DNA of 46,089 nucleotides from a virus (IMGVR_UViG_3300025398_000034:1-46089), one strand, 5' to 3'. Shown: positions 4,569 to 40,400, counted from the stretch's first letter. Notes: generated by a model not told the origin, from the letters alone. Numbers and translations: made by a program.

Positions 4569-7378
4569 TATTTTTTCCTACCTTTCAAGTAATCTAAGGG
4601 TGATTTTAGAGCATCTGGGGCTAAATCGCTAGGCTTTGCCGACCTAGCTCTGTTCCTGATGGAATGCATCATTTCGTACAGTTTTTGAGTTCCTGCCTTG
4701 GTAGATCCATTGCCAAGGGCGGCCACTACGTCAGCAGGAAAGACAAACTCCCCATCAGCCAACATCGCAGGGATATCGTCTGAAGTGCCATCCCCATGGC
4801 CTGCCACATGAGCACCATGCCTAAAGTCGTGCCTGCCATCTGGCCTTGGTATTGACCCTAAAGGGGTAGGAACGCCACCCGTTTTGAGGGGTTGTCCTTC
4901 CATAGAAGGAGCTTGATAGTTCTCAGTCAACATCTGTTCAACAGAAGGCAAATTCTGCCCATATTTGTAATATGGCTGTTCACCTTGAGCTTGGGATCTT
5001 TGTTGAAGCATTTGGAGTAATTTGGGATCAATGTTATCTTGCATGGCTTTCTCGCTTGTTTGTCCTTTGGAAACGATATCCTGTAGTCCTTTTAGGACAT
5101 TTTTGAAAGAATCTTGTGTCATCAATGTATGTAGTAAATGGGGGCTTAAATCCAAAGGCGTTGGAGCGCCACTTACACCACTTGGTTGCGTTGAGGCCGA
5201 TAGTGATGGAGTTACTTTAGTTGTAGAAGTAGGAGTTGGTGTCGGAGTAGGCGTTGGAGTAGGTGTAGGGGTGGGGGTAGGTGTTGAGGTTTTTGTGTCA
5301 ATCTTTGTATCAGGTTTTGTATCAATTACTGTGTTGTCTATAACAGTATCTGCAGGCAACTTTTGACCAGTAACAGTAACATTATTTAATTTAAGAGCAT
5401 TAGGATCTTCAGTAACATCAGGGTTGACATAAACTCCATCCACAGTGTCATTGGCTAATTTTTGACCAGTAACGGTAACTTGCCCCAAATCAGGCACTGA
5501 TTTTCCAGTAACCGTTACAGGATTTAAAACAGTATTATCAGTTGTGTCATCAGCTAATTTTTTACCAGTAACTGTAACTTTTGGTATGCTCAAAGCATTG
5601 GGGTCAGCAACAACATTATCTGTAGATTCAGTTCCACCAGTACCACTAACCACAACAGGTTCTGCAGAAAGTGAAGTTTGATTACTAGGTGTAACCTTGG
5701 TATCTAAAATTGCGTCATTTTCAGCCAAGTTAGCATTGCCACTTGTTGACTTGGTATCTAATATGGCATCATTGGCCTTCATTTCAGTGTTGGCATTGGC
5801 CTCGGCTTTAATTAATGCTTTGACCTCATTAGTACCTGCGGCAATGGCGGCATTGATGGCTGTCTGTGTTGGATTTGCTCCTGCAAGAGTTCCACCAATA
5901 ATTTTGTTAACAGCAGATTGCGCCGCAGGACTCAGAGTGCTGTAGCCGGGTATCTGTGCTCCCACCATAGGTACAGCAGAACTTATACCTCCTGCCAACA
6001 ATGCTGTGAGTGGGTCTGCTTTCCCCTGAGTCATAATCTCAGCAGATGTTAATCCTTTGGTTGCACCAGATGCAATCGTACCCAAGTTATTAGCTATTGC
6101 ACCGTTTGGCAAAATGTCAGTAAGAGTATCACCAACAAAATTGCCAACCGTATTGGGAACACCTTTTTTCAACAAAAGTTGTGCTTCATCTGACATATCA
6201 GCAAAGCCGGGTATTAATGAGGCAGAATTTCCCAATCCAGTCGTAAGCGCACTTAGTCCTGCACTGGTCAAACCTTTGGCTAGATTACCAGTTTCGATGG
6301 CTGTTGTTGCACCACTGACTAAAGGCAAAAATTCAGGCGCAAAGATGGCAGTGGCTATCGAGGGAATTGGCCCCAAGTCTTTGAGTGTATTTTTAATGAA
6401 TCCACCACTTTGACCGCCCTGAGAAATGACTTGCTTACCATAATCTTGAATAGGAGAAACTATTCCAGTGCTAGGATCTGCCAATACAATAGTGTGAATA
6501 ATTCCACCATCAGATGAATATGTCTGCAAATCATATTGATTGTCGCCAAGCGGCTTTATGGTATCAACAGGCAATGGTTTACCATCTGGGCCAAGTAAAG
6601 CAGGCGTATCACTTGTTGTTGATATACCAGTCTCAGGATCAGTTGAGACTACAGGATTTGTTCCTATTTTCGTGTTGCCGTATTGAATGGCTTGGTAAGT
6701 TGTAGCAAAGTTAGGAACAACACTTGCAGTGTGTGGATCTGTTTGAGTAGGAGCACCTGAATATTCAGCAGTTTGTGATCCAGTTGGACTTGCAATGTTG
6801 TATTGCTGTTGTACGTAATCTTGATTTATATTCAATGCAGTTGCCAATTGACTTGGACTAATATGATTCTTGTCCATTGCACTGGCAACATCAGCATAAG
6901 TACCGCCACTATCCAATATAGACTTTGCTGTACTTGCAATTTGATCATTCAATGATGGTGCAGGTGTAGGTGTAGGGGTTGGTGTAGGAGTTGGACTGGG
7001 CGTAGGAGTAACTAAGTTTCCTTTTCCAACCATGCTTTCAAACTGGCTCATCGCAGGAGATACAGGCGTTGGAGTAGGCGTTGGAGCGGGTAATCCACCC
7101 AATGCAACTTGATTTGCATATGATGGAGCTTGCGCCTGAGATATATTCCCACTAGAAAGGCCATTAAGAACTGAGGCGGCGGTTAGAGGGGGCGCTCCAG
7201 TTAAAGAATTGTAGTTACTACCAATAGTTCCCACATCAGTCCCATAATGCTGTGCAAGAGCTTGGGACATATCAGAAGTTAATCCACCATTGGATTGCAC
7301 TGCCTTGGCAACATCTGATGTTGATGCAGTGGGGTTAGCCGCAAAATATTGGGCAACAATGTCTGAAGTTGTTGTCAT
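4568..7378 (-). CDS. Putative internal virion/ejection protein with Pro-Thr linkers, VTVTG repeats and a C-terminal GDGTSDDIPAMLADGEFV module, 936 aa
   Basis: Long ORF with overlapping start/stop junctions to both neighbours; motifs read directly from the translation. Confidence 0.6.
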   Translation of the reverse strand: MTTTSDIVAQYFAANPTASTSDVAKAVQSNGGLTSDMSQALAQHYGTDVGTIGSNYNSLTGAPPLTAASVLNGLSSGNISQAQAPSYANQVALGGLPAPTPTPTPVSPAMSQFESMVGKGNLVTPTPSPTPTPTPTPTPAPSLNDQIASTAKSILDSGGTYADVASAMDKNHISPSQLATALNINQDYVQQQYNIASPTGSQTAEYSGAPTQTDPHTASVVPNFATTYQAIQYGNTKIGTNPVVSTDPETGISTTSDTPALLGPDGKPLPVDTIKPLGDNQYDLQTYSSDGGIIHTIVLADPSTGIVSPIQDYGKQVISQGGQSGGFIKNTLKDLGPIPSIATAIFAPEFLPLVSGATTAIETGNLAKGLTSAGLSALTTGLGNSASLIPGFADMSDEAQLLLKKGVPNTVGNFVGDTLTDILPNGAIANNLGTIASGATKGLTSAEIMTQGKADPLTALLAGGISSAVPMVGAQIPGYSTLSPAAQSAVNKIIGGTLAGANPTQTAINAAIAAGTNEVKALIKAEANANTEMKANDAILDTKSTSGNANLAENDAILDTKVTPSNQTSLSAEPVVVSGTGGTESTDNVVADPNALSIPKVTVTGKKLADDTTDNTVLNPVTVTGKSVPDLGQVTVTGQKLANDTVDGVYVNPDVTEDPNALKLNNVTVTGQKLPADTVIDNTVIDTKPDTKIDTKTSTPTPTPTPTPTPTPTPTPTSTTKVTPSLSASTQPSGVSGAPTPLDLSPHLLHTLMTQDSFKNVLKGLQDIVSKGQTSEKAMQDNIDPKLLQMLQQRSQAQGEQPYYKYGQNLPSVEQMLTENYQAPSMEGQPLKTGGVPTPLGSIPRPDGRHDFRHGAHVAGHGDGTSDDIPAMLADGEFVFPADVVAALGNGSTKAGTQKLYEMMHSIRNRARSAKPSDLAPDALKSPLDYLKGRKK
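5226..5285 (-). repeat. Coding (Thr-Pro)n repeat; further copies at about 6960-7010 and 7066-7090
   Basis: TPTPTPTPTPTPTPTPTPT in the 936-aa protein; synonymous codons vary, so it is kept at protein level. Confidence 0.9.
5355..5665 (-). repeat. Five copies of a VxV(T/S)G peptide motif
   Basis: EPVVVSGT, IPKVTVTGKK, LNPVTVTGKS, LGQVTVTGQK, LNNVTVTGQK; DNA ccagtaacNgt recurs four times. Confidence 0.85.
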
Positions 7379-10822: not shown

Positions 10823-10824
10823 GT

Positions 10825-11463: not shown

Positions 11464-11494
11464 TCTTTGCCCTTATTAGCAGTTGCACATTGCA

Positions 11495-11523
11495 ATTTTA
11501 GTCTTTGTTTGAATGTCAAGCAA
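11495..11523 (-). promoter_or_regulatory. Putative sigma70 promoter for the adaptor/hub/ejection operon
   Basis: TTGCTT-N17-TAAAAT on the minus strand in the AT-rich gap; a promoter is needed here because a terminator at 11905 isolates this operon. Confidence 0.5.
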
Positions 11524-11904: not shown

Positions 11905-11931
11905 AAAAAGGGGGCTTTTGCCCCTTTTTTT
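11905..11931. terminator. Bidirectional Rho-independent terminator
   Basis: AAAAAGGGGGC-TTTT-GCCCCTTTTTTT between convergent genes, with A-run and T-run flanks. Confidence 0.9.
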
Positions 11932-12883
11932 ATACTTTGATCACTTTTCCTCTGAACTCAATGTGATCTTTGTCATAGACTGAAACCAATTCTGGATATA
12001 GCAATCTACCTTTATGGAAAGTTAAGACAGCAAATCCAGAGCGCCAGTTGAGTGGAGCTTCTTCTGTGTAATCCCTAAACTGAGGGCCTAAAGGGTCAGC
12101 CAATGTTCCGGTATCCACGCCATAGGTCGTTCCATTGAAATTTGTGTGCGGTATAACCTTCATGCTATGAAGATGCCCAGTCACAAAATTAGTCCCCGAA
12201 TGGAGTGTATTGTTGTATACAGCAAAATTGCCACCCTTCCATCGGTGCTTAACAACAGTTTGCTCGTTCATCCACACCGACCAACAGGGTTGCCAAGAAG
12301 GGAAATGGTCTTTTAGGCTGAATCCCTTGACGTGCTCATAGTGAGGGGCATTGGCCGCCAAAAACGTCTCAAAACGAGCGTCATGGTTACCCATGGGCCA
12401 TATCAATTTAATGCTTTTGTTTACATTTTTGGCTTCATCTTCAATTTCACCCATTGCCAATTCGCAGGCTTTTAGCTCTTCAATGACTGATGGTGCTTTG
12501 CTCCAACCAATGCGTGGATGCCTGCTGATACCGCCTGCACCATCAAAGACATCGCCATTTGCAACCACCGCTTTAAGGTCATCAAACTCTTTGATTGCCC
12601 AAATAAGGCCATCATATGCCGTTGACCTGAGACCGGGGAAAAAGTGCGCGTCCGAGAACACCAATACCGTCCCATTTAAAATACCCAAATCCAATCTTTG
12701 GGGGGCAGGATCAACCCTATCCTTGATTTGAATTGTAAGCAAATGTATTCCGTATCTACCTTCTAAAGAATTTCGCCTTGCTTGTATACCTCTGATTGAC
12801 AATCCCGTATCATTTGACATTGAAGCGGGATTTCCGTATAGCTGAAATAGCGTTATAAACTCTTCATCAGATAAATAATTCAT
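11930..12883 (-). CDS. Calcineurin-like metallophosphoesterase with N-terminal HTH-like segment, 317 aa
   Basis: All five motifs present: SDAH, NGDVFD, GNHD, KH, GHLH. Confidence 0.85.
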   Translation of the reverse strand: MNYLSDEEFITLFQLYGNPASMSNDTGLSIRGIQARRNSLEGRYGIHLLTIQIKDRVDPAPQRLDLGILNGTVLVFSDAHFFPGLRSTAYDGLIWAIKEFDDLKAVVANGDVFDGAGGISRHPRIGWSKAPSVIEELKACELAMGEIEDEAKNVNKSIKLIWPMGNHDARFETFLAANAPHYEHVKGFSLKDHFPSWQPCWSVWMNEQTVVKHRWKGGNFAVYNNTLHSGTNFVTGHLHSMKVIPHTNFNGTTYGVDTGTLADPLGPQFRDYTEEAPLNWRSGFAVLTFHKGRLLYPELVSVYDKDHIEFRGKVIKV

Positions 12884-13299
12884 AACTTCTTTCTAAAGTA
12901 AAGGGTGCCTTTAGCACCCCAAGGATGTAGGGGTTCGTATAACTTAAATCCACAAGAAATCAGAGAATTTGATGATGGTGGGTTATCGTAGGTACTTGTG
13001 ATCAAGTACTCCCATCCTATTTTTTTTGCAAAAGTTTGGCGCACTCGAATAAGTCTCTTCTGAACCCCGCGCCCACGAGCAGAATAAATAACACCTGCAC
13101 GGCAAAGATAACCAGTATCAGCCCACCTAGCAGAAGGAACAAGACCCGCGAAACCAATTGGAATGCCATCTTGATAAGCAATCCACCAATTTCCTTCGCT
13201 AACATCAAACGGTTTATCATAAGGAAGAATCTTCTTCTGCATAGACAACAGAAGTTCCTTATTAACTTCAAGTGATGCGTCTATGTGCTTGATTTTCAT
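12880..13299 (-). CDS. GNAT-family acetyltransferase (start at 13299 or 13320)
   Basis: PIGFAGL, acetyl-CoA motif V..SARGRGVQKRLI, NPPSSNSLISCGF. Confidence 0.85.
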   Translation of the reverse strand: MKIKHIDASLEVNKELLLSMQKKILPYDKPFDVSEGNWWIAYQDGIPIGFAGLVPSARWADTGYLCRAGVIYSARGRGVQKRLIRVRQTFAKKIGWEYLITSTYDNPPSSNSLISCGFKLYEPLHPWGAKGTLYFRKKL

Positions 13300-13340
13300 G
13301 CAGTAATGGTATTGTTTCATTACTGCACAATTATGACAAG

Positions 13341-15865: not shown

Positions 15866-16092
15866 TCTTCACCTATGATTGCTGTTGATGTTTCTCTGTT
15901 AATGGTCATTTTACCTTCGCAGGTAAAGTTCCAATCTTCACTTCTAGAGTCTTTTTCAGTCTTTGAGGGTACATTTATTTCAACATTCTTGAATAAATAT
16001 TCCTTTTCTCCCTCAAAGACTCTCCAACAATGGTCTTTTGAACCCCTTCCAGTTGCTCCCCTAGATTTGTTGAATCTGATTGAATACTTCAT
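15862..16092 (-). CDS. Hypothetical protein, 76 aa
   Basis: ATGA-type overlaps on both sides. Confidence 0.75.
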   Translation of the reverse strand: MKYSIRFNKSRGATGRGSKDHCWRVFEGEKEYLFKNVEINVPSKTEKDSRSEDWNFTCEGKMTINRETSTAIIGEE

Positions 16093-16814
16093 ATCACCTC
16101 AGCCTCTGGTGGCGTGGTAATAGTCACTAGATTATTAACTCTAACACCAATATTGAAGTGAATAAACTTCAAAGGCTTTAAGGATGCATGGCGAGTAAAA
16201 GAATGGGGTGCCCAAGCATTGGCAAAAAATATCATCCCTGCCTCTGGCACAAAATTAATCATGTTACTAGCCTGAGTTGCTTCGTTCATATTGGATTCAG
16301 GAATATGAGCCATGACCTTACCGGGTCTAGGATCATGAACTACAACCCTTGATGACTCTGGCGGCACTTCAATAAAGTAGAAACCAACAATCTGCGCCCC
16401 ATAAGGATGAACGTGCTCGTCCATTGCCGAATGTCTGTGGTGCTCTTGCCCCCAAAACTCAGTGAAAAATGTGACCTTATCATCCATTTTGTAACCCTGA
16501 GATTGCAAAATGTTCCAAGCAGTTGATGCAATGTAATTGCAAGCCTCTTCCAATCTTGGATCACCAAACAAGTTTCCAGTCATGTGAACTGGGTATAACT
16601 TGTCCAATAATTTATCGGTCTTACCCTTCTTCTCTTTTTTAATTAACTTTATGTTTTCGTTGAAAACAGCAGTGGCATCTTTGAGAAATTCTTTTTTCTT
16701 GATGGTATATACGGCTGTAGGGAAGTAAAAGTGAGCACTTAATTGCTGTTCAATTGCTTCTTGGTTTACTTCCTTAACTTCACCAACAATTTCAACAGAG
16801 TTTTCGTCAAACAT
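16089..16814 (-). CDS. Putative 2OG-Fe(II) oxygenase (TIGR02466-like), 241 aa
   Basis: YFPTAVY, EHVHP, GFYFI, HDPRP, PEAGMIFF..W.PHS, F+HFN double-stranded beta-helix motifs; AAGGA RBS. Confidence 0.75.
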   Translation of the reverse strand: MFDENSVEIVGEVKEVNQEAIEQQLSAHFYFPTAVYTIKKKEFLKDATAVFNENIKLIKKEKKGKTDKLLDKLYPVHMTGNLFGDPRLEEACNYIASTAWNILQSQGYKMDDKVTFFTEFWGQEHHRHSAMDEHVHPYGAQIVGFYFIEVPPESSRVVVHDPRPGKVMAHIPESNMNEATQASNMINFVPEAGMIFFANAWAPHSFTRHASLKPLKFIHFNIGVRVNNLVTITTPPEAEVI

Positions 16815-17152: not shown

Positions 17153-18382
17153 TTACCAACTTCTAACAATAATTTGACCGTTTCCACCCTTGGCGCCTGC
17201 TCCACTGGCTCTTGAATTTCCAGTAAATCCTGCTCCCCCGCCACCACCACCACCACCGCCGGGTGTAGCTCCGCAACCACCTTTACCACCGGCATTTGTT
17301 GCACCGCCACCGCCGCCTCCAGAACCACCGCCGCCAGAACCAGTTTTAAACACAACGCCATTTTGTCCTACTCCTCCGGGTGCAGTTCCTCTTGTTGCTT
17401 GACAAGAAGCACAAGTTTGATACCCTTGACCACCTCCTAGACCTCCGGCTGTTGCCGCACCCGATGTGCAATTTGTTGTACCGCCACCACCGCCACCACT
17501 GGGGCCAAAAATAGAACTACCTGCATTGTAAGGGACAGCGCCATTAATTGGTGTACCACCAGCACCACCACCCCATTCTGCACTGCCTCCACCACAGACT
17601 GATGAACCGGCACCACCGCCCCCAACTGTATTAAAATTAGTTGTAGAACCAAAATAAGTGTTAGAAGGATAACCACCGTTTTTACCTGATGAAATTGCGG
17701 TTGGAGTGATACCAGCGCTACCAGAACCACCGCCACTACCACCCGGAGCTTGTGCGGCACCCACGACACCTTTGAATCCACCGCCACCACCATAAGATTT
17801 TGCATAAGCGGTTGCAAGTGTTGATCCAAAGTATGTATTACCTCCTACAACTCCAGAATTACCATTAGTTGTACAAGTTACCGATGCCCCACCGCATCCA
17901 CCTGCACCAATTGTTACGTTAACTGTTGAAGTTAAACAAGCCGCTGAAAATATTGATTGAACTCTTGCGCCTGCGCCTCCTCCACCACCTCCGGGCTTTC
18001 CGCAAATACTAGCATATGAAGCGCCACTACCACCACCACCACCTGCACCCCAAACACACACTTGAACATAAGTAATACCTGCGGGTTTAGTCCAAGTACC
18101 TGAAGAGGTGAATGTTTGTAAGTTTGCACTAGAAGCCGATACGCAAGCCCAAACAGGAGTTCCTGCGCCTGCTGATTTCAAATATTGACCAGAAGTACCT
18201 GCGGCTGTTACTCCATGTGCAGTACCTGTTCCATAAATAATTGCGCCCGCTGTTGGCGTTGCAGTAGAATTTGTACCGCCATTTGCAATTGGTAACGTAC
18301 CACTCACACCAGTTGTCAATGATGCTTGACCTGATGTATTTAGATTGTCGGCAAATGCGCCTAAATTACGAGGTTGTGTCAT
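17153..18382 (-). CDS. Glycine-rich tail fibre/adhesin, 409 aa
   Basis: LPIANGGT fibre module, FTSSGTWTKPAG..V.V.VWGAGGGGG start of the Gly-rich domain, terminal GGNGQIIVRSW. Confidence 0.75.
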   Translation of the reverse strand: MTQPRNLGAFADNLNTSGQASLTTGVSGTLPIANGGTNSTATPTAGAIIYGTGTAHGVTAAGTSGQYLKSAGAGTPVWACVSASSANLQTFTSSGTWTKPAGITYVQVCVWGAGGGGGSGASYASICGKPGGGGGGAGARVQSIFSAACLTSTVNVTIGAGGCGGASVTCTTNGNSGVVGGNTYFGSTLATAYAKSYGGGGGFKGVVGAAQAPGGSGGGSGSAGITPTAISSGKNGGYPSNTYFGSTTNFNTVGGGGAGSSVCGGGSAEWGGGAGGTPINGAVPYNAGSSIFGPSGGGGGGTTNCTSGAATAGGLGGGQGYQTCASCQATRGTAPGGVGQNGVVFKTGSGGGGSGGGGGGATNAGGKGGCGATPGGGGGGGGGAGFTGNSRASGAGAKGGNGQIIVRSW

Positions 18383-25002: not shown

Positions 25003-25524
25003 TTACCAACCGGGACAGTTCCAACGCTTTAGTGATGCCTTAGCTCTTGGCGCATCTCCACTTGCGTGTTTTACTACCCCAGACATTCTTGCACAAAATG
25101 AATCCTTGCGTGAACCACCTTGGGGCTGTGGAGCCTTTAAATGGCTTCCTGTCTCACGGTTGTACTTAGCCCTGCCTTTAGCTGTGAGTCCCGCGCCTTT
25201 GTCTGTCGATAGTTTTTCACCTCGTCCGACAGCCAATGACACGCCACCACCATCTTTGTGCTTTGCAGTTTTAGCTGATTCTTTGAAAGCTTCAGCAGTT
25301 GGGGCACCCTTTGAACCAACTTTTCGCATTTTTTCATGAGATCCATGGGCAATCCTCTCTTGTTTTGCATGAATATTGGCATACAAGCCGCCTTTGGCCA
25401 TTTTCTTCCCCTCATCAGCTTTGACAAATTCTTTGCCGACCTTCTGAGGAACACCACCAAACCCACCTTTTGTGTGGGCGGCGGCTTCCATCAGCCTGTG
25501 TTGAGCAGGTGATTTACTTGGCAT
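25003..25524 (-). CDS. Basic multi-module protein, 173 aa (C-terminal module DUF6321-like)
   Basis: ATG 25524 just after the upstream stop; GLTAKGRAKYNRETGS.LKAP...RKDSFCARM...SLKRWNC. Confidence 0.7.
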   Translation of the reverse strand: MPSKSPAQHRLMEAAAHTKGGFGGVPQKVGKEFVKADEGKKMAKGGLYANIHAKQERIAHGSHEKMRKVGSKGAPTAEAFKESAKTAKHKDGGGVSLAVGRGEKLSTDKGAGLTAKGRAKYNRETGSHLKAPQPQGGSRKDSFCARMSGVVKHASGDAPRAKASLKRWNCPGW

Positions 25525-28206: not shown

Positions 28207-29883
28207 TTACTTTTTGATACTGCCACCACGCTTTTTAGGTGGTACAACTGTAGTTGATTTTACAGTTTTAGTCACGCTACCTGATGGAGGCGCTCCAAAT
28301 CCCAAAGCATTCTTGACCATGTTGTATCCACTTGTTAGCGGCTTCAACATCATGTCACGCATTGCTATATTGTCGGCCTTGTCTTGTTTTGCAACAGAGT
28401 CATAGCCTCCATGAGATTCGTCAGTGGTAGAGCCACCACCATCAAACTTTTTTACGTGGCCACCCTTCTTGAACACACCCGACAACTCATTGATCCGAGT
28501 AGCTCTTGAAGGAGGTTTGTTAGCTTGGGGCATTACCACGGCAGAACCCTGTTTGTTAACAGAGCCCCCCGTGGCGAAGTGCTTTTTTGCGTGGCCACCT
28601 CGCTTGAATCCACCTGCATTAGCTTCTTTCACCTCACCAGTTTTGGTGTGTGATTTGCCCTTGGGTGTAGTATCAACATTGTAGTTGGTGAAGTGACCTT
28701 CATTGCCTTCAATGGTGCCCTCTAGATCAACCATGCCGCCTTTAGCATAGTGGTGCTTCTTAGCCTTGCCACCGTGCTTGAAACCGCCGTCATTGGCCAT
28801 ATCAACTTGGCCTGTACCGCGAGCTTTTCTATCAGGCATTGCAGTGTGCAAATCAGTGTTCTCGTAGTAGTGCTCATTACCCTCGATAGTTCCACCCATG
28901 ACTGACTTGCCACGTGTTTCGCTCTCGTTGGTCTCACTAGGAATACGTGAACCAATTGCACCGCCACTAGCGTACTTGCCGCCTGAACACATAGCTTTAT
29001 GGTGCTCCATCATCTTTTTGTGATGAGCAGAACCACCTTCTTTGTGCATTTTGGCATGGTGTTTAGCCATGTGCTTGTGGTGCTCAATAGAGCCTTCAGG
29101 ATGGCCAGATTTATGGTGAACCTTACCACCATGCTTAAAACCACCTGCATTGCCCTCTTTGATTTCACCAGTACCGTGTGCTGTATCACGACCTGCACCA
29201 ACAACCTTGGTTTTGACAAAAGGCTTTTGGTTGTTTTCAATGGTATTTTTTGTTTCAAAACTATCCATTTCCTTCCCGCCGTCAACCTTGCCACCCTTGG
29301 CATAATGATGTTTAGATCCACCAGTTTTGCATTTTTCCAAATGCTCCATGGCTTTATCTAGATGATGAGCACCGCCACCTTCTTTGTGTTTCTCAAGGCA
29401 AGCTCTGGCTTTAGCAAGATTCTTCATGCGCTCAGAAGCAGAACCACCTGCGGCCATACCTTTGTGGGCTAAGTGAGCAGGCATATGCTCGTGATGACGC
29501 AACTCTTTTTCAATCTTCTCAAAGCGTTTGTCTTCAGCTTCTTGCTCTTTACGAGTTTCGATCTCACCGCCGACAGCCTTGTGAGCCTTGCCACCTTTTT
29601 TCATCAAAGGAGTAGCCATTGCCTTGCGGCGCATAGCCATGCTAGGACGCATAGGAGCCGCACCTGCCATTGCAGGAGCCATGCCCATAGGACGTGCCAT
29701 AGGCATTCCGCTCATTCCACCCATAGCGTGGTGTTCCATTGACTTGTGGCCGTGCTCTTCCTTGCTTTCATGCTTTTTGGAAACATGACCGCCTTTTTTG
29801 AGCTTCAGAATAACTGAAGGCTCGTCAGTCATCATTTTGGGCATTTGGACGAATCCAGTTGCACCCTTCATTGCTTTTGCCAT
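28207..29883 (-). CDS. His/Lys/Met/Gly-rich low-complexity repeat protein, 558 aa (probable internal head protein)
   Basis: AGGAG RBS; about 18 xxxGG motifs; three roughly 60-aa internal repeats. Confidence 0.75.
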   Translation of the reverse strand: MAKAMKGATGFVQMPKMMTDEPSVILKLKKGGHVSKKHESKEEHGHKSMEHHAMGGMSGMPMARPMGMAPAMAGAAPMRPSMAMRRKAMATPLMKKGGKAHKAVGGEIETRKEQEAEDKRFEKIEKELRHHEHMPAHLAHKGMAAGGSASERMKNLAKARACLEKHKEGGGAHHLDKAMEHLEKCKTGGSKHHYAKGGKVDGGKEMDSFETKNTIENNQKPFVKTKVVGAGRDTAHGTGEIKEGNAGGFKHGGKVHHKSGHPEGSIEHHKHMAKHHAKMHKEGGSAHHKKMMEHHKAMCSGGKYASGGAIGSRIPSETNESETRGKSVMGGTIEGNEHYYENTDLHTAMPDRKARGTGQVDMANDGGFKHGGKAKKHHYAKGGMVDLEGTIEGNEGHFTNYNVDTTPKGKSHTKTGEVKEANAGGFKRGGHAKKHFATGGSVNKQGSAVVMPQANKPPSRATRINELSGVFKKGGHVKKFDGGGSTTDESHGGYDSVAKQDKADNIAMRDMMLKPLTSGYNMVKNALGFGAPPSGSVTKTVKSTTVVPPKKRGGSIKK

Positions 29884-31019: not shown

Positions 31020-31934
31020 TTAAACGCCTGCTGTACCAAACAACGCGCGTGGATCAGTCCAGTTAGGAATGTAACGCTCAGTTGCTTTATAACGCATTGA
31101 ATCAGTCTCGAAATCACCTTCCATGGTTTTCTCCAAACGTCTACGCATCATGAGCTTCATGCCCTCTGGCGCATCAGTCTGAACCCACCATGCAGTGGCA
31201 GAAGTCAAGCGTGACAATACGGCGGCACCCTCGTCTAGCAACCCGATTGACTTGATAGGATTCAAGTCATTGTTTGCTGTACCAGTACGGAGAACTGATT
31301 TCAACAAAACTTCAGCTTGGAAGATGTTACCGGGGGCAACAACCAACTGACGGGGAACCAAACGGATTTTCTTACCATTGTTGTCCACAGATTGACGGAT
31401 TTGAATCAACATCTGTTCAAGAGATGTTTGGCTCAAAACTGCGGCTGAAGACAATTGGTTAGAGAATGTACCGTTCACGATTGGGTGAGCAGTGTTAATC
31501 AACGACACGCCATCACCACCAAGATAGGAACTATTGAAGGCTCTGTTCAAAATGTTTGCACAGAGAGTTTCTTTAGTTTCAATCAATGATTGTGCTAGGT
31601 GACGAGCATACACTTGACCGATACGGATGTGATCGCCATCTTCCACCAACACTTTTGTCAAGGCAAAGGCTAAACCAAAGACTTGATAAATATAGCGTTG
31701 TAGGAAGAGAACTCCACCCTGTTGGTAGCTGACAGGTGTACCGTCAGGCAACTGGGGAGCGGCTCCAAATCCATATAGGACAGGCTCTTCATGGTAGTTA
31801 CGTGGAATACCGTCTTCTTCACGGAAAACACGTGACCACTCGTCTTCACGTAGGTCATAGACTCCATCAAAGCATTCGTTGAGAATTGGTTCAACAATAC
31901 TTCTAAAGTCCGTACTTCGCATTGGTGCGGCCAT
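31020..31934 (-). CDS. Major capsid protein (HK97 fold, Mu gpT-like family), 304 aa
   Basis: EEPVLYGFG.A....DG..V.Y, ANILNRAF, GGDGVSL....HP, PRQLVV.P, EGDFETDSMRYKATERY...WTDPR; GGAG RBS and own terminator. Confidence 0.85.
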   Translation of the reverse strand: MAAPMRSTDFRSIVEPILNECFDGVYDLREDEWSRVFREEDGIPRNYHEEPVLYGFGAAPQLPDGTPVSYQQGGVLFLQRYIYQVFGLAFALTKVLVEDGDHIRIGQVYARHLAQSLIETKETLCANILNRAFNSSYLGGDGVSLINTAHPIVNGTFSNQLSSAAVLSQTSLEQMLIQIRQSVDNNGKKIRLVPRQLVVAPGNIFQAEVLLKSVLRTGTANNDLNPIKSIGLLDEGAAVLSRLTSATAWWVQTDAPEGMKLMMRRRLEKTMEGDFETDSMRYKATERYIPNWTDPRALFGTAGV

Positions 31935-31944
31935 AATTTACTCC

Positions 31945-32612: not shown

Positions 32613-33158
32613 TTACCCGTAAAAGACGGGATTAGGCACATTATTTTTGCTTAACTGTCTCAACCCATCACCTTCGATGTCAGCCAACCCACGTCCAGAA
32701 CTATCTTGAGTTCCTTGGAGTTGCTCAACTTGGACTCTGATCTTGTCAGCTTCTTCATTGGGCAAGTCGTGGTGCATATGCAACATAACCTCTTGGTACA
32801 TATCCATAGGGATCTTAAACAAGAGCATTTCATTACAAGCTACATAACCAACGTGTTCTCCGGCCTTGACTTTGTAACCCTCGAATCCAGATACTTCTTC
32901 CGATTTAACCGGAACATATCCTAATCGCATACGCTTATCAATGCTGTCGTAACTGTTAGTAGATGACAACCAACATACGTGCCATCCGGGAATGGATGGG
33001 GCTTTGGGTAAAGCACTTTGCGTCCACTCTTCGCTCCACATTTTTTTACGTTCATGCGAACTAGTGAACTTTTCTTCTGGTGCCAGTCGGGAGTGATCTT
33101 CAGTTGACCGATTCTCTCTACCGCCTGCATTCAAAGATTTTTTTAGACGTGATTCCAT
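32613..33158 (-). CDS. Hypothetical head-module protein, 181 aa
   Basis: LP.AP..PGWHVCWLS, RMRLGY.PV, MLLFKIP; lies between scaffold and decoration genes. Confidence 0.7.
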   Translation of the reverse strand: MESRLKKSLNAGGRENRSTEDHSRLAPEEKFTSSHERKKMWSEEWTQSALPKAPSIPGWHVCWLSSTNSYDSIDKRMRLGYVPVKSEEVSGFEGYKVKAGEHVGYVACNEMLLFKIPMDMYQEVMLHMHHDLPNEEADKIRVQVEQLQGTQDSSGRGLADIEGDGLRQLSKNNVPNPVFYG

Positions 33159-33170
33159 TTGCTAGATCCT

Positions 33171-34115
33171 TTATTGTTTGTTGCGTGATTCTTTGATATA
33201 TCGCTGTATCATCTTGGCCTTTTTAACAGGGTCATCCCACATTCCTGCGTCCTTCATAGCCCTTACCTGTTCTGGTTCAAGTATGAATTGCGCCCTGTTA
33301 GTAGAACCGTTGACGGTTTCGCGTCCAGTTCCTCCCACAACACTCCTAGGTCTCCTTGCAGATGGATTTGCGTCCATAGTGTCATTGTACCTATGGTTAA
33401 CGCGCTTTGACAAGCGTTTGTCCAATTCCGACCAATAATCTGGATCAGCAGGATTCCAACCTTCTTTAACTAGGTCTTCATCAATAACTTTTGCTATACG
33501 GCTGTCAGTATCGTGGCCATTTGGGTCGTACCATTCGTTCCTTTCCATCCAGTTAGCGGCATTGCGCTGTACTCGTGGATCGGGCAAACTATTGTTTTGC
33601 TGAGGCTTGATAGCGGCTTCTTTGTAACCTTTTAGGTCACGGATCGCCATCATCGCTTCGTCCCTTAACTCTTGAGCCTTATTGAAAGCCTCGCCGTCTT
33701 GGGAAGACATAGCCTCTGACATCTTCATCTTGGCATACTGCAGGCGCAACTCTTGGTCTTCTACGGCCTTGTCAATACGGGCAAGATCAGCACTGTGAGT
33801 CTTACGCTCAACAACAGCCAGACGCTCCATTAACTGTTCGTTTTGCTTTCGGAGCAGATTAAGTTGGGCTTCCTTCTCAGAAGTTGTAGCCTTGGCTATT
33901 TCCTTCTTGTATTTGCGTTTGTTGCGTCTAGCCTCACGGATGGCTTGTGTGTCATCAGGATGGTCATCTCCACCATCTTCTGGGACATTAGATATGTCTT
34001 TTGGACTATCTTCGGCATCATCCTCGGGGATCATACCCTCGGGTACATCAATCACGGCAGACCCATCGGTCTCTTCCTTGACTGTGAATTCTGGTTCTTT
34101 AGTTTCAGTTGTCAT
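33171..34115 (-). CDS. Putative capsid scaffolding protein, 314 aa
   Basis: Acidic disordered N-terminus, long coiled coil, W..RN.WY, C-terminal L..EQ..AM...G helix pair. Confidence 0.6.
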   Translation of the reverse strand: MTTETKEPEFTVKEETDGSAVIDVPEGMIPEDDAEDSPKDISNVPEDGGDDHPDDTQAIREARRNKRKYKKEIAKATTSEKEAQLNLLRKQNEQLMERLAVVERKTHSADLARIDKAVEDQELRLQYAKMKMSEAMSSQDGEAFNKAQELRDEAMMAIRDLKGYKEAAIKPQQNNSLPDPRVQRNAANWMERNEWYDPNGHDTDSRIAKVIDEDLVKEGWNPADPDYWSELDKRLSKRVNHRYNDTMDANPSARRPRSVVGGTGRETVNGSTNRAQFILEPEQVRAMKDAGMWDDPVKKAKMIQRYIKESRNKQ

Positions 34116-34546
34116 ATATAGGCTCTCATGGCTAAGGGATCACCGATTACTTTGGCAATTACTTCATGGTCGTTGAGGATCATAAAAAGAGCTTTGTCTT
34201 CATGAATGTCCTCACCGGGAACTGCTACTTCCCATCGATCACCGCCCCATTTGGGGACTCGGATGTAGTCACCTACTGCACACCATGAGCCTTCTGGCCA
34301 TGGATTCATAGTGTCTCGGTTTTTAAACGCCAATGGCCCGATCATCAGGACTTTGGCTACCATGTTTTGCCACTTCTCAGTCTCTTTTGTTTCTTCCAAA
34401 AGAATAATCCCTGAACCTGTAGTTTTCTTCTTAGTACGCTTTAACTGAACTAAAATTCTTCCACCTAATGGCTCTGCTCCGGGATTTACAACTGGAAATG
34501 CCCAATTTATCTCAGCTTCGTTAAAAGCTACCGTGCTATCGCTCAT
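34112..34546 (-). CDS. groES: GroES-like co-chaperonin, 144 aa from ATG 34546
   Basis: EPLGGRILV, mobile-loop-like KTTGSGIIL, AKVLMIGP, VGDYI, ILNDHEVIAKV. Confidence 0.85.
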   Translation of the reverse strand: MSDSTVAFNEAEINWAFPVVNPGAEPLGGRILVQLKRTKKKTTGSGIILLEETKETEKWQNMVAKVLMIGPLAFKNRDTMNPWPEGSWCAVGDYIRVPKWGGDRWEVAVPGEDIHEDKALFMILNDHEVIAKVIGDPLAMRAYI

Positions 34547-34730
34547 TTTCTCTATCCTGTTCTTGTTGTAACAAATTGTTAATAGTATCCAAGACCTCTT
34601 GGAGACCAAGATAAACACCAACTGTCCTTTGGTACGATTCCCATGACGAAGCGTTTCCACACCCCAAGGAGAAAGCTATTTCAGCTTGTCGCGCCTTAAT
34701 GACAGTGATGATCTGTGAAGTTGAAATCAT
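34536..34730 (-). CDS. Hypothetical helical protein, 64 aa
   Basis: L..GNASSWESYQR.VG...GL pattern; ATGA overlap with the upstream 52-aa ORF. Confidence 0.75.
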   Translation of the reverse strand: MISTSQIITVIKARQAEIAFSLGCGNASSWESYQRTVGVYLGLQEVLDTINNLLQQEQDRENER

Positions 34731-34885
34731 TTATTTTTCTTAGCTTGTGCGAGTCCTCCTTGTGGTTTAGATGGGGTTTTTGATCCACCTTTGGGTTGAT
34801 AAGATGTGCCGTCAAGCTTTTCGCCTTGGGCAATACGTTTGTGCTGTGGAACGTCCACAGACTTTTGCTCGTTATCACTAGACAT
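34727..34885 (-). CDS. Unannotated 52-aa basic protein: MSSDNEQKSVDVPQHKRIAQGEKLDGTSYQPKGGSKTPSKPQGGLAQAKKNK
   Basis: GGAGG RBS; start overlaps the portal end; stop overlaps the next ATG. Confidence 0.75.
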   Translation of the reverse strand: MSSDNEQKSVDVPQHKRIAQGEKLDGTSYQPKGGSKTPSKPQGGLAQAKKNK

Positions 34886-37433
34886 TTTGTCCTCCTAAGT
34901 AAGATTGGGCACGGTCTTGTAGCTCCAATGCAGTTTTTGCCTGCTCATGTTGCAATTTATCCCCGTCATGGGATAACTTTGCAGATTCAATACGTTCTTT
35001 AGTAAGATTGTTCTCAGTATTCATGGCAACACCCATTTCTGTCTCTGCGGCGAACTTGTCCTCGTCAGCCTTGAGTTTTGCAGATTGCAATGCTTGGTCA
35101 GCCTGCAACTTAGCCTGAGACAATGTCATATCCATCTTGTCTCTCTGTGCCCTACGCTGAGTCTCAGCCATAGAGGTTTGGATCAAAGCTTGAGCTTCTG
35201 GATCTGGCGGTACTGCCTGTTGTTTCAACTGCTGTACTTGTTGCATCATCTGTTGGAAGATAGGCATGACGTATTGGAAAGTCAACTGGGAGTCTTGTTT
35301 CACGTGTTGAGCGGCTAGTGCATAGAGCTTGTCAATGCCATGTGTCACCTTCTCATCGTCATAATCCATGTGTTTATGCTTCAATGCACCGTTAACATAC
35401 TCATTCATGCGATGCTGATACCATTTGCCCAAGTGATCTTGCACGTGCTCAACCATAGGCTGTAGCAATTGAGGCATGACTAATGGATTATTGCCACCAA
35501 AGACAGGATCTTGGTAGAAATCAATGTGGGTTTGGATGTGCGCTAGGTGATCTTGCTCGTCATAAGCCTTGGCAGGCTCTCCACCCATCATCATGATGTT
35601 CTCTTGCGAGGCATCAATCATCTTGTCTTCAGGCTCCATGATCATCAATTCATTGATCTGGGGCACTTTCATCTGCTTTAAGAAGCGTTCTAGTACCTTT
35701 TTAGTCTTGAATTGGTCTGGAAACTGTCCCATCAAGGCCATTACAGCCTGAGTTTGAGCCATTCTCTGCGTTTCAGAGAAGATATGTGGGTCAGAAACAG
35801 GAATAACGTCTGTATTGCGCTTGAAATCATCCCTGTGGATGTCTAAATCAGCAACAACTTCGCCTTTTCTCTGCTCGTCAAGATACCAACGGTTCAATCT
35901 GGCCAAGACTTTGAGCACACGCCCTTGGGATTCATGCAACCTAGCGTGAATTGCTGAGTAAACATGAGCGCCCTGCTCAATCAAGGCTTGGGCAGTACCC
36001 ACAGGCATATTGTTGGTAGCGTCTGCAATCTTCTCTTCAGAGGTAGATACAACGCCTTTGGCGGCTTCCGTTAGCCAACCCAATAGCTCCATAAGCACTG
36101 CGCTTGGAGGATTGAATGGCATGGGCATAGCAATCTTACGTACGTCATCTACGCCCGGTGCGCCCTCGATCTCAGCCACCTGAGTGACCTCAACTTGCTG
36201 TGTCTGCCCTGACATCCTTGCGCCCTTGATCTTGAGCATGGTTGCAGAGTTATTAATGTGGGCAGAGTCCAATAGAGCACGTAAAGCACCCGTCAAAGCG
36301 GCACTCAGTCCACCAATAAGGTGAGGCATTCCAATAGCGTAAGCACCCCTCCAAGGGATAAACTTAAACTCGATCAGGTAATCGAGCTTTGTCATTGTCT
36401 CATCGCCCTCTTCCCAGTTCCTGTAGAGGCCAACGACCTTTTGGTCTAACTCATCCACCATCAAGATGTAAGGAGCATTCTCGCCCTTAGTGCGCTTGTC
36501 CTCGTCAATGTCTAGCCATGTATAGATGTGGTAGACGTTCCTGACTCCATCATCATTGTTTTCCCATTTCTTACCCTCAATCTTGGCGTTAGCCTTCTCC
36601 GAGTAAGTCTCTTCAGGTGTTTGCGAGGCGCGAATCAAGTCGATGTCACGATAAAGTCCTGCCTTTACCCTGCGCTCGAACTCCCATGATGTGATAGTGT
36701 TAACTTCTGTTACCCGTTGTGCGGTATAGAAGTTGGCGCAGGCGTAAGGCAAGTAGATATTGTCAATAGGTACAAATTCAGTACAGGGACGTTTTTTGTC
36801 TTCGTCATACCACATTTTGAGGTACTGTGAGCCACCAAGAGGAAGTTGGGTCAGTAACTGCTCTTGTTCGTCCCTGAACTCTTCAATCTGCTCAGTCAAC
36901 TGCCAGTTCATGTAGTCACGCTTACGCTCTGCTACTTTGACTTTTTCGTCATTGACTTCGCCAATAATCTTTGTGCGGGTTGGGCCATCTGGTGGGAAAA
37001 GCTCTTTAATGGCTCTAGACGCAAAGTCTACGCAAGCTTCTGCCATGATAGGGTGAACGACTTTAGAGGCTCCTAGGAAGTTTGCGCCTCCGGGTGCATC
37101 CTTACCCATACCAGTCCGGCGTAAGCCCTCCTCGTACTGTTTATCGCGCTCCTCGCGGCTCTTCTTGTCATTGTCAATCAAGTCCATGTAATGCATGGCT
37201 ATCTTGTTCAAGTCATAAGGGTCAAACACCTCTGCCAAGTTCTGGTAAAAGTCTTCGTCCTCATCAGGAGATGAATAGTTTTCTAGGTTAACAACGGCCG
37301 AACCATCAGCCTGCTCTTCAACGTCTAAGTCTTCATCATTGATGTCAACGGCCACACTTCCATCTTCATCAGGCTCTGATATGCCTTGAATGAATCGGTT
37401 GTAATCTTGTGGTACGGGCATTTGAGTAGCCAT
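34878..37433 (-). CDS. Portal protein (P22-like, long C-terminal coiled coil), 851 aa
   Basis: HPIMAEACVDF, ELFPPDGP, LPLGGSQY.K.W.D, FIPWRGAYAIG, PVGTA.ALIEQG, Gln-rich C-terminal helix; position after terL. Confidence 0.85.
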   Translation of the reverse strand: MATQMPVPQDYNRFIQGISEPDEDGSVAVDINDEDLDVEEQADGSAVVNLENYSSPDEDEDFYQNLAEVFDPYDLNKIAMHYMDLIDNDKKSREERDKQYEEGLRRTGMGKDAPGGANFLGASKVVHPIMAEACVDFASRAIKELFPPDGPTRTKIIGEVNDEKVKVAERKRDYMNWQLTEQIEEFRDEQEQLLTQLPLGGSQYLKMWYDEDKKRPCTEFVPIDNIYLPYACANFYTAQRVTEVNTITSWEFERRVKAGLYRDIDLIRASQTPEETYSEKANAKIEGKKWENNDDGVRNVYHIYTWLDIDEDKRTKGENAPYILMVDELDQKVVGLYRNWEEGDETMTKLDYLIEFKFIPWRGAYAIGMPHLIGGLSAALTGALRALLDSAHINNSATMLKIKGARMSGQTQQVEVTQVAEIEGAPGVDDVRKIAMPMPFNPPSAVLMELLGWLTEAAKGVVSTSEEKIADATNNMPVGTAQALIEQGAHVYSAIHARLHESQGRVLKVLARLNRWYLDEQRKGEVVADLDIHRDDFKRNTDVIPVSDPHIFSETQRMAQTQAVMALMGQFPDQFKTKKVLERFLKQMKVPQINELMIMEPEDKMIDASQENIMMMGGEPAKAYDEQDHLAHIQTHIDFYQDPVFGGNNPLVMPQLLQPMVEHVQDHLGKWYQHRMNEYVNGALKHKHMDYDDEKVTHGIDKLYALAAQHVKQDSQLTFQYVMPIFQQMMQQVQQLKQQAVPPDPEAQALIQTSMAETQRRAQRDKMDMTLSQAKLQADQALQSAKLKADEDKFAAETEMGVAMNTENNLTKERIESAKLSHDGDKLQHEQAKTALELQDRAQSYLGGQNV

Positions 37434-37435
37434 AA

Positions 37436-40400
37436 TTATTTCCTTTTGAATGCTTTATTTTGCAATTCCATTTGCATTGCGTCAGAATTCTTTGTTACCT
37501 TAACTTTGCCGCCCTTTTTCTTGCCAGTCAGAGCTTTCATCTGTTTTTGATATTCGCCAATTTCGTCAATCAGTTGTTGATCAATAGGCTGTCTAGGGCC
37601 AACCATGCCAAATGATCCAAACTCTTGTGGCGATTGCTTTGGGTTTGCCCTTACTGCCTTAACTGTGTCAGGGAAAGACAACTCATAAGGAACAGGATAT
37701 GGCGAGGTTCCCAAGAAAGAACCGGGGATGTCATGCGAATAAGTGGGATGGCTAGAGTAATCCAATGGCTGATCTGGCCTCATCTCACCAATTGACTTGC
37801 CAGTTACGCCTATCTCTAGATTGCGTAAGCTAGGCTCAGTGATTGCATGGGCAATGTCTTGGCCTCTAGGTATGCCAATCTCTTCGCTTAAAGTAGGCTT
37901 CATCATTAACTGATTGAAGTGCTTTCTAAGCTTGGGATCCATCTGCATCTGCATATAAGCATTGCCAATGTCTTCAACAGTCTCAAAGTTTGGTCTTGGG
38001 CCTTTAGACAACGGGCCACCCTTACGAATCAATTCATTGAGCTTTTCTATCTGCTCAGGAGTCATGCCAGACTTTGCAATAGCATTCAAATTGGCATCAG
38101 CAAGGTGTTGGGCATAGTAGTAGCTATTTGGCCCCATCATGACATAGTTACCCAATACTGGGGCGTTATATGCCTGCGAAGCTTCTTTGGCTAAGTTCTG
38201 TACGCCTTGTGCAGGGCCAAGTCCAGATGCCCAGAAGACATCTTTACCTTGTCCATACAATGGGCCGCCATGCTGTGGTGATGGAGACTCCAACTCGATG
38301 TCACCCACTTTGTGTAAGGTCTGGTTAGTAACAGTAGGATCACCTTTGATCCCAATCATTACCTTGCCCTTATGCTTGGCTAGGTCAACCATCTCAGGGT
38401 CAGGCATGGGTGTATCGACTCGAATGTCTACAGGCAAAGACTTCTCACGCATAAATTGCTTGTTAGACTTGCCTGCAACACCACTGACTTCACCTGTGAC
38501 TTGTGGTGCCATGCGTTCAGCAATAGCTCTGATCTCACTAATAGTCTTTGGGGCGGCTCTTTCAAGCATCTTGGCTATAGCTCCACCACCCGCAAACTTC
38601 CTGTCGCTCAACTCCATCATCATTGCGTCTGGATTGTCGCTAATGTGAACCTTTCCACCACGCTTGAACTGTGGCGTTGCATCAGGCGTTCCACTTACTG
38701 TGCCCAAGTCAACTGGTGCTTGTGTATCTTTTGGAAGATAAGACTTCAATTCTTCGTCAATTGGCGCGTTCTCTCCATGGATTTGCTTGAGATTGTTATA
38801 TTTGTGAATCAAAGGCATTACGGTTTCATAATCTTCTGTTGGCATAAATCTTGGAAGATCAAAGCCACTTGCCTTGCCTATATCTTGTGCGCCAGTCATT
38901 ACTGTATCGTGCAATCCAGTATTATGTAGATCACCCACATCACTCCAGTTACCTGACTTTACAAAGTCTTGAACAAAAGGGAGGTATTGCTCGTTAGGAG
39001 CACGATTCTGCTTGCCTTTGATTTGAGTAATGTCAAGATTTTGTGGAATGTTTAAATCATCAAATAAATATTGAGCATGGCTCAATTTTTCTTCTGGACT
39101 GGGTCTGTAATCAATGTTATAAATCCAATTTTCAAAACGTCTGTTAAATTCGTCTTGAACTTCTCTAGGTTGTTTATGAAGATGTTCTTCAGTAGGATTT
39201 GATTGTGCAACTTCAATTGTAGTATGTGGATTGCCTTTAGGGTCAACCAATGAGTAAACCTTAGCTTTCCCACTCTTAATGGCTTCCCATCCACCGTGAC
39301 CATAATAGTCGCTACCTGAGTCACCAGATTCTGGTATCCAATCAGGATGGCCTTCTGGTGGCTCGTATCCACGAACCGAGTGACCCATGGCTTGTGATTC
39401 TGCGGCAAATTGTCCGGGTTGATCTAACTGCACCCACTTCATTCCATTGGGATACTCTTTATGCAAAGTCATTTCATCAAGCTTTTTAGCTTGAGCTTCT
39501 TGCATCTTCTTAGCTAATGCTAAATCATAGTCAGCAGTCTTGCGTACTGCCTGCTCTATGCTAATGTTTTTCAACTCTTCGGGTTTCAAACGCCCAGTAG
39601 TTAAATTTTCTTTCAACACATCTAATACGTGATCAAAGCCTAGGCCGCCAGTTTGGGCTGAATAAACACGAGTATTTGGATCGAGCTTGTTTACAAATGG
39701 GTTTTCTTCAAGAAGTTCTTTGTTGTATTCTAAATCGTGAGAATGTAGATTTAGTTGTTTGGCCAAAGCTTTAGAAAATGTATCATCTCCAACAATTTGT
39801 TCTTTATCGTCATTAGCAATGTTTCTAACAAAATTGTTTTCTTGTTCTGGGCTTAGATTCAGACCTTTGTCTCTGATATGTTGTATTAACTTTTGATTTA
39901 AATCATCATGCGCTTTTAATGATTCTTGTTTGGCTTGCTCAAGTTGTGCCAGTCTTTCTGGCGCTTCTTGTATGCTTTTGGCTTTTTTAGGATTAATTGA
40001 CATATCAGAAATGTCTTCCCAACTCTTTGCCTGCGTTGACTTACCCATTCCTTTAAGAGGAAAACCTTCATCAACTCGCATTTGATCTAGTAGCTCATTG
40101 ACATCTTCCAATGGAACATGAGCAACGTGCTTTGTACTTAATTCTTTTTCATTCTCAGCTTCAGTTCTTAATCTATTAGCTTCACGCTGAAAGTTTGCCT
40201 GTCTTCTAGGATCTGGTTCGCTTTGTGCCCTTTCAGTAAGACGATCAGCCTTTGCAATGTCTTTGCTGTACTTGCTGTTAATTTCATTGATTCGATTGTC
40301 AATCATTAACCGAATTGGGTCTTCAGGCGTACCCATTTGATTCTTGACGTAGTTGGTTAGATTCTTTTCAATCCAGTTGTTTAAGGCAACATCTTTTTGT

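Follow-up and report, generated by a model that had tools for sequence, protein, structure and literature searches.

A Gly-Gly junction motif at the joints and tails of swappable modules in probably particle-internal proteins of an uncultured tailed phage and its relatives

The 46,089-base contig IMGVR_UViG_3300025398_000034 (the window, by which we mean this whole stretch) derives from an uncultured tailed phage whose long open reading frames (ORFs) all lie on the minus strand, and it contains a seven-residue peptide motif that recurs in unrelated proteins: a bulky hydrophobic residue, Lys or Ala, any residue, Gly, Gly, any residue, and Val, Ile or Ala. It is a real junction motif, located at the joints and tails of swappable modules in probably particle-internal proteins, and is apparently undescribed. 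Our tentative reading is a standard flexible seam between such modules, one that may also serve for cutting, and not an address tag. All motif copies, modules and genes of the window located below are on the minus strand.

The copies are most numerous in a His/Lys/Gly/Met-rich repeat protein of 558 residues (28207..29883) that matches no Pfam or PHROG family. An earlier reading made from the letters alone (the sequence-only reading) had placed about 18 copies in this protein; the strict pattern [FYMLH][AK]xGGx[VAI] finds 13, and allowing Lys in the first or Tyr in the last position brings the number to 15, among 27 Gly-Gly pairs in all. These 15 copies of 21 nt each span 28216..29802 and lie, in order, at 29782-29802, 29584-29604, 29560-29580, 29437-29457, 29368-29388, 29284-29304, 29119-29139, 29026-29046, 28954-28974, 28762-28782, 28729-28749, 28588-28608, 28558-28578, 28453-28473 and 28216-28236. 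An ORF of 1183 residues between terL and portal (37436..40987) carries FKRGGKV (residues 774-780, 38648..38668) at the joint following its N-terminal region, FAGGGAI (residues 798-804, 38576..38596), and KKKGGKV (residues 1156-1162, 37502..37522) at the junction ..YQKQMKALTGKKKGG. In a small basic protein of 173 residues (25006..25524; 192 residues from an upstream TTG), MAKGGLY (25381..25401) forms the joint of modules 1 and 2, and HKDGGGV (25240..25260) that of modules 2 and 3. Finally, a 936-residue protein with Pro-Thr-rich linkers and a putative tape-measure-type C-terminal module (4568..7378) holds LKTGGV (4871..4888), one pattern position short, upstream of that module, and FRHGAHV (4805..4825), a degenerate copy at the start of the module. 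The alignment column of LKTGGV reads F/Y/M-K/A-x-G-G in relatives, and FRHGAHV aligns with MARGGYA of Caulobacter phage RW. Every copy quoted in the sequence-only reading is present at its claimed minus-strand location.

Chance expectation in the window was estimated from 2000 composition-preserving shuffles of each of 36 window ORFs. The 13 strict copies of the 558-residue protein compare with 0.10 expected and were reached in none of the 2000 shuffles; the 1183-residue protein has two strict copies for 0.04 expected (P 0.001), and the 173-residue protein one for 0.03 (P 0.03). When the window ORFs are pooled without the 558-residue one, three copies are observed versus 0.65 expected (P 0.03). 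Judged inside the window alone, sharing of the motif across proteins is thus weakly significant, and it was therefore tested in relatives, where it becomes clear. Two glycine-rich fibre-like proteins of 409 and 476 residues (17153-18382 and 18883-20313; Pfam Gly_rich_2 and fn3, with tail-fibre-type PHROG matches) serve as an internal control: despite 57 and 66 Gly-Gly pairs, neither contains a strict copy, so the motif is not a by-product of glycine density. As had been noted, no copy occurs in the capsid, portal, terL or enzyme products of the window.

A portal-based scan of viral contigs matched 600 stretches, 597 of which were confirmed as relatives; the 80 best loci were used, and their ORFs were called and put into window families by BLASTP. 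Strict copies were counted in distinct sequences, with the window excluded, and compared with 200 composition-preserving shuffles; as the sequences share descent, the copy counts are not independent events. The 99 proteins encoded between terL and portal (hereafter polyvalent ORFs) contain 139 copies versus 4.1 ± 2.0 expected, the 36 members of the 558-residue family contain 292 versus 2.4 ± 1.5, and 53 scaffold-like proteins contain 14 versus 0.1. The corresponding counts are zero versus 0.7 for TerL (60 proteins), zero versus 0.3 for capsid (30), one versus 1.1 for portal (69), zero versus 0.1 for a conserved 181-residue family (45) and zero versus 0.2 for a GroES-like family (42). The motif is plainly restricted to a few protein families, and its enrichment over a composition-matched background is confirmed. 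Many relatives' scaffold-like proteins carry an acidic form, A-[EDS]-G-G, in an N-terminal linker that is without it in the window copy, and the basic motif also adjoins other, unrelated modules and turns up in actinobacterial and enterobacterial phage tape measures. The cultured Pelagibacter phage HTVC027P has copies in gp41, gp42, gp44, gp46, gp47 and gp82. Codon use within the motif is mixed for Gly, and for Lys it amounts to 61 AAG and 49 AAA (background 4499 and 3168); codons vary and residues are kept, which indicates selection at the peptide level and not at the DNA level. A DNA-level recombination site is ruled out by these mixed codons, and a programmed frameshift at Lys-Lys-Gly-Gly codons was rejected, as Lys codon use equals the background and slippery-like copies number only 12 of 139.

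The placement of the motif can be followed in the polyvalent ORFs, which range from ~200 to 2050 residues and are split differently between phages. Within the 99 ORFs, 432 of 3929 internal BLAST alignment ends lie 10 residues or fewer from a motif, compared with 131 ± 21 under circular shifts (maximum 201 in 300 shifts), and the ends concentrate 0-10 residues past the Gly-Gly. The core motif falls in the last 40 residues of 76 of the 99 (~10.5 expected) and in the first 40 of two. A module end, ..YQxxMKxLTGKKKGG, which closes the window 1183-residue protein, has 11 different continuations in relatives: a class A tail that ends the ORF, a class B tail that ends it with a second ORF overlapping, or further modules. 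The earlier statement that the motif lies at module boundaries or near the C-terminus is borne out by these three results. The tails conserved behind the motif read ..N[RP]DxMxMELxNKKLKRK (class A) and ..GDDLILEERPL (class B); the window ORF has both an internal class A unit, HISDNPDAMMMELSDRK (38597..38647), between two motif copies, and a C-terminal class A tail, KVTKNSDAMQMELQNKAFKRK (37439..37501), and in relatives the unit recurs internally as well as at the C-terminus.

In split polyvalent genes, the ORF that comes first closes with ..GG-x-I-x-GDDLILEERPL and overlaps the next by 4 nt (ATGA; L026:3317-7240 and L026:7237-9864, likewise L042 and L054), and the second always begins MSL.., with ..PFYSAVDEAL..KGTGxEF after it; a ribosome-binding site for the coupled ORF may partly explain why the EERPL end is conserved. 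Just downstream of the portal gene, relatives encode proteins of 51-54 residues that end ..PAKKQGGALSQAKKK (L026:12419-12574, L030:3644-3799, L042:12546-12701), and the window's equivalent of 60 residues (34696-34878) is without such an ending. The ending KKQGGALSQAKKK of these small proteins is present in 4 of 50 distinct portal C-termini too.

Of 22 large ORFs of relatives scanned for domains, 17 match a Pfam family at E<=0.01 and five have none; ART-PolyVal occurs in nine (eight above the Pfam cut-off), PcfJ in four (three above) and LPD23 in two (one above). By their ART-PolyVal and LPD23 domains, the giant ORFs of relatives would count as polyvalent proteins as Iyer et al. 2017 describe them, where such proteins are predicted to be packaged and injected and processing by an embedded metallopeptidase domain is proposed (PMC5512222). 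The words 'linker' and 'glycine' are absent from the main text of that paper, and no junction peptide is therefore described there under those words. Like polyvalent proteins, the relatives' ORFs are giant, highly variable and apparently multi-domain and lie beside portal and terminase genes, and the location of the window 1183-residue ORF between terL and portal agrees with the placement by which polyvalent genes are recognized. Unlike them, the window protein has no embedded metallopeptidase and no Pfam match; BLAST shows modules that it has in common with relatives' ORFs.

Module exchange at the motif is directly visible in the 173-residue protein, which consists of module 1 (25402-25524), module 2 (25261-25386) and module 3 (Pfam DUF6321, 25006-25239). 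Among 24 distinct relatives, the motif is the exact point at which modules are lost, gained or set apart as ORFs of their own: module 2 is absent in some, one protein has an extra module between two copies, and one gene is split at the second joint. A search for short homologues in 5.8 billion proteins, confined to lengths of 30-94 residues, returned at least 7967, and the best 120 were classified by patterns. Module 3 alone accounts for 63 of these 120; each of the 63 begins with Met, which in 53 is no more than 8 residues from the module, and the Gly-Gly is kept in eight. Module 2 without module 3 accounts for 43, of which 23 stop just ahead of the Gly-Gly (15 end ..TAKVK) and the other 20 retain it together with a vestigial tail (19 end in Trp); the remaining 14 are unclassified by the patterns, most resembling module-3 forms. 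Homologous modules thus do occur as separate ORFs bounded at the motif, both in the relatives and among the short homologues, as the sequence-only reading had proposed to check. Since the Gly-Gly is missing from 55 of 63 downstream-module and 23 of 43 upstream-module stand-alone proteins, it is, in this family, a feature of the joint and not an address that each module needs.

The 558-residue protein has a conserved N-terminus, ..TDEPSVILKLKKGG, a conserved C-terminus, ..GSVTKTVKSTTVVPPKKRGGSIKK, and a variable middle. Its family (36 distinct members; full-length 335-582 residues with 6-15 core motifs) begins ..TEPSVELKLKKGG and ends ..GSVTKTEKSVTVTPxKKRGGSVKC around a His/Lys/Gly/Met-rich variable middle, and the motif stands near the end in all 34 distinct C-termini. 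In the 558-residue protein itself, many copies sit in tandemly repeated units, ..TIEGNE..HGTGEIKExNAGGFKxGG... Comparison of the protein with the ESM Atlas gave nothing informative. Many motif-bearing proteins of the 558-residue and DUF6321 families end in Cys or Cys-x-x-Trp right after the last Gly-Gly (..KKRGGSVKC, ..GGKMTKSCW, ..WNCPGW; window 25006-25020).

In the 936-residue protein, the motif precedes a C-terminal module (4571..4825) called GEFV (..GDGTSDDIPAMLADGEFVFPADVVAALGNGSTKAG..). The module recurs in 13,034 cluster representatives at E<=0.001, and among the 150 matches listed it lies within ~20 residues of the C-terminus in proteins of 97-2913 residues; it is preceded by 2-4 tandem motif copies. 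Its tape measure matches come from actinobacterial and other siphophages: by tblastn it matches annotated tape measures of Arthrobacter, Rhodococcus and Nitrincola phages (E 6e-4 to 5e-5) and Phage DSL-LC04 (8e-9). An hhalign comparison with lambda gpH is weak (E 2.7e-4, probability 41%), and NCBIfam TIGR01541 matches lambda gpH but not the 936-residue protein. As the relatives of the window phage are podoviruses, the 936-residue protein would serve in ejection and not as a ruler; its gene adjoins two genes matching the PHROG families 'DNA ejection protein' and 'released from the phage upon host infection'. It also has long Pro-Thr repeats (TPTPTP.., residues ~100-140 and 699-717), a second kind of linker. 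In the AlphaFold2 model of its C-terminus, the motif region has a predicted local distance difference test (pLDDT) score below 50; the GEFV module has a mean pLDDT of 54, the GEFV stretch itself being mostly <50, with only two helices longer than four residues. The one PDB sequence match of the module is the mycobacteriophage Douge tape measure (8zdo), in which only residues 1658-1699 are resolved and the part corresponding to the module is not.

Tape measures are also known to be cut in regions that hold a Gly-Gly. T5 pb2 matures to pb2* and pb2C and lambda gpH to gpH* and gpHC (PMC10038345, PMC12617516), the only two tape measures from which removal of a C-terminal piece during assembly is known; the 936-residue protein, for its part, ends in a module with matches to annotated tape measures, and motif copies precede that module. 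The T5 pb2 cut, mapped by mass spectrometry after R1127 (PMC10038345), reads ..FVPR|AEGGMM.. in the sequence; it lies at a module border, and its Gly-Gly is the sole one of the last 730 residues. The R-A-x-G-G and the GE(H/N)GxE block that follows are kept in five of five aligned Demerecviridae tape measures, down to 39% identity. This is the only tape-measure cut mapped by mass spectrometry, and it falls within the conserved R|AxGG block. The cut is three residues ahead of the Gly-Gly and not behind it, however, and pb2 differs from the motif in having Arg at the hydrophobic position. Neither BLASTP nor hhalign detected similarity between pb2 and the window GEFV module, so T5 stands as an analogy only and not as a member of the same group. 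Lambda gpH loses ~14 kDa from its glycine-rich C-terminal region, with site and catalyst both given as unknown (PMC12617516); the region contains FATGG (732-736) and YATGG (777-781) flanking GEFV. TP901-1 Tal is described as processed within NGGGNSGGGD (PMC11409707). All three are proteins of the tail.

The reading of the motif as a flexible seam rests on its junction-only behaviour, the predicted disorder, the failure to find a protease (see below) and the shuffling of modules. The two glycines would let the chain swivel freely, with the hydrophobic and Lys/Ala residues beside them closing off the adjacent modules. Strings of modules that are small or disordered could then be stowed in the head or the tail lumen and pass through the portal-tail channel module by module. 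A chimaera of any two modules that meet at the seam would be functional, which would account for the heavy shuffling, and an exposed seam would be a natural place to be cut where cutting occurs, as in tape measure proteins. Several observations weigh against this reading. A swivel alone leaves unexplained the conservation of seven positions, the hydrophobic residue and Val among them, in modules that are unrelated and phages that differ widely; the pattern resembles that of a recognition site. In the 558-residue family (34 of 34) and the polyvalent ORFs (76 of 99), copies are also found 3-25 residues from true C-termini, where there is little to hinge unless the tails count as mini-modules. 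Tape measures are cut in the motif region (T5 pb2 as mapped, lambda gpH in its FATGG-holding region), and no structural or proteomic datum was found for any carrier of the basic form.

A possible, if unlikely, alternative is that the motif is a processing site, at which polyproteins would be cut, whether by a protease of the host or the virion or in the course of assembly or ejection, freeing modules that other phages encode separately. The conserved cut block of the Demerecviridae tape measures, the loss from the FATGG- and YATGG-holding region of lambda gpH and the processing of Tal in a glycine run are consistent with it, as are the resemblance of the seven-position pattern to protease subsites and the fact that fused and split versions of the same modules are both very common. 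Against it, copies 8-11 residues apart would free tiny peptides, and those 3-10 residues from the C-terminus would trim almost nothing; the T5 cut precedes A-x-G-G, and pb2 is an analogy only. The large packaged proteins N4 virion RNA polymerase (vRNAP) and P1 DarB are carried uncut, which also counts against processing. In a broader form, which we regard as doubtful, the motif would be the recognition site of a widely shared cutting activity, either a host enzyme or one triggered by assembly or ejection, that splits the module strings of ejected proteins; its substrates would include the polyvalent cargo, the 558-residue protein, the small basic proteins and the tape measures lambda gpH and T5 pb2, and tailed phages would thus have a Gly-Gly processing code of their own, a counterpart to the codes known from adenoviruses, asfarviruses and coronaviruses.

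The search for a protease bears on both forms. The scanned window ORFs match no peptidase family in Pfam, PHROGs or NCBIfam, which upholds the earlier statement that the window has no recognisable prohead protease, and none is annotated in the complete relative MW202545.1. The zincin-like HE[LM]QH occurs in just 3 of the relatives' 99 polyvalent ORFs, 13 more fit HExxH by letters only, and the window 1183-residue ORF has none. The fuller form HE[LM]QHxxQxxEG, a possible embedded peptidase, is found in L065:3894-9998 (residue 711), L006:712-2262 (271) and L051:5320-8829 (312). Eleven relatives' polyvalent ORFs carry GHEGRHR, which is absent from the window 1183-residue ORF; its extended form, GHEGRHRxRAL, we take to be reminiscent of ParB-like nucleases. 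Two phage-encoded readers of the motif had been proposed, namely the conserved 181-residue ORF (32613..33158) and the GEFV module, and neither finds support. The model of the former has a mean pLDDT of 59.8, Foldseek gave no match against the PDB at E<=0.001 (best E 1.1), and the Atlas returned only viral hypothetical clusters; moreover, Caulobacter phage RW retains a homologue, and in this phage no polyvalent ORF lies between terL and portal and the motif is present as a single copy, ahead of its tape-measure-type module. The GEFV module, predicted to be largely disordered alone and with a tape measure as its sole solved relative by sequence, is likewise unsupported as an enzyme. No solved relatives of the portal, capsid, 936-residue and 1183-residue proteins were found. 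In the podovirus phiRIO-1, compared here by its absence of a protease alone, no processing is reported (PMC4819975).

The sequence-only reading had drawn parallels with adenain-type sites and double-glycine leaders, but the registers do not fit. Adenain recognizes (M/I/L)XGG-X, and the African swine fever virus protease pS273R and related cysteine proteases cut polyproteins at Gly-Gly. As in those sites, which lie at borders of virion-protein precursors, the Gly-Gly of the motif is preceded by a hydrophobic residue; unlike in adenain sites, where that residue is two places before the first Gly, it peaks here three places before, with Lys/Ala two before, and no clan CE cysteine protease was found among the scanned window ORFs. 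Double-glycine leaders are N-terminal on exported peptides and are cut by C39 peptidases with a cognate ABC transporter. They resemble the motif in the patterned stretch ahead of the Gly-Gly, whereas an N-terminal motif is found in only 2 of 99 polyvalent ORFs, and no C39 domain was matched in the window scans.

The proposal that the motif is a portable signal for polyprotein cutting or head loading fares unevenly: that it is portable and common to unrelated, probably virion-internal proteins is supported by the enrichment and the borders, whereas its reading as a tag is weakened by the stand-alone modules. As a head-loading or docking tag, the motif, together with its short tails, would recruit cargo to the prohead by attaching to some part of the particle, whether portal, capsid interior, scaffold or DNA; we consider this improbable. 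The strong C-terminal bias in the polyvalent ORFs and the 558-residue family, the conserved class A and class B tails and the ..KKQGGALSQAKKK ending of portal-adjacent proteins and a few portals would fit such a role. Short N-terminal peptides that direct proteins into the head are described for T4, as the capsid-targeting sequence (CTS), and for P1 DarB (PMC9024508). Like these, the motif is a short portable peptide; unlike them, it is internal or C-terminal, rarely within the first 40 residues, has different sequences, and is dispensable in most stand-alone modules of the small protein. Furthermore, with an acidic form in the scaffold-like protein and the motif itself in tape measures of the tail lumen, no single partner is evident. 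That the motif has no function of its own, being a by-product of Lys/Gly-rich low complexity, tandem duplication or shared linker descent, is very improbable: although many 558-residue copies sit in tandem units and the relatives are not independent samples, this is largely refuted by the shuffles (0.1 versus 13 in the window protein, 4.1 versus 139 in the polyvalent ORFs), the alignment-end test, the motif-free fibre proteins, the kept residues under varying codons and the counts in relatives, including copies beside unrelated modules and in distant tape measures.

The contig represents a late gene region, running from terL (41047-42468) through the head genes, fibres and lysis genes to ejection-type genes at the far end. 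Downstream of the 1183-residue ORF lie the portal gene (34878-37433), a GroES (Cpn10)-like gene in the head module with ~60 additional N-terminal residues (34112-34660), the gene of the 314-residue scaffold-like protein (33171..34115), the 181-residue ORF, a 213-residue ORF, the major capsid protein gene (31020-31934) and a 350-residue ORF that precedes the 558-residue gene. The GroES-like gene is kept in relatives (60 family members across the loci), with co-chaperonin annotation in Caulobacter phage RW and HTVC027P. An 877-residue virion protein gene separates the 558-residue gene from the 173/192-residue DUF6321 gene, beyond which are adaptor-like, fibre and lysis genes. Two separate genes match the SU10 adaptor family PF24175 (10825-11463 and 23920-24993), the second fused to an F5/8 type C-like domain, and a metallophosphoesterase, a GNAT acetyltransferase and a 2OG-Fe(II) oxygenase are among the late genes (11930-13320 and 16089-16814). 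By portal similarity the nearest record is MW202545.1, a freshwater metagenomic phage (59%); RW-type Caulobacter phages come next (45%), and Roseobacter phages stand at 31-34% together with Pelagibacter phages of the HTVC023P type, a type assigned to Podoviridae in one abstract.

No description of the motif was found in the literature on polyvalent proteins, tape measure cleavage and podovirus virion processing, and searches with the motif peptide strings gave only primer and other non-phage matches among those listed. If the motif is a defined signal, thousands of giant phage proteins that have no annotation could be divided into their modules by one simple rule, and there would be concrete residues to mutate. 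The question of the tape measure cut has been open for decades in lambda and T5, and the conserved A-x-G-G block is a directly testable candidate. If the motif is only a standard connector, it would explain the free shuffling of cargo and effector modules between phages and might offer a design rule for engineered cargo proteins.

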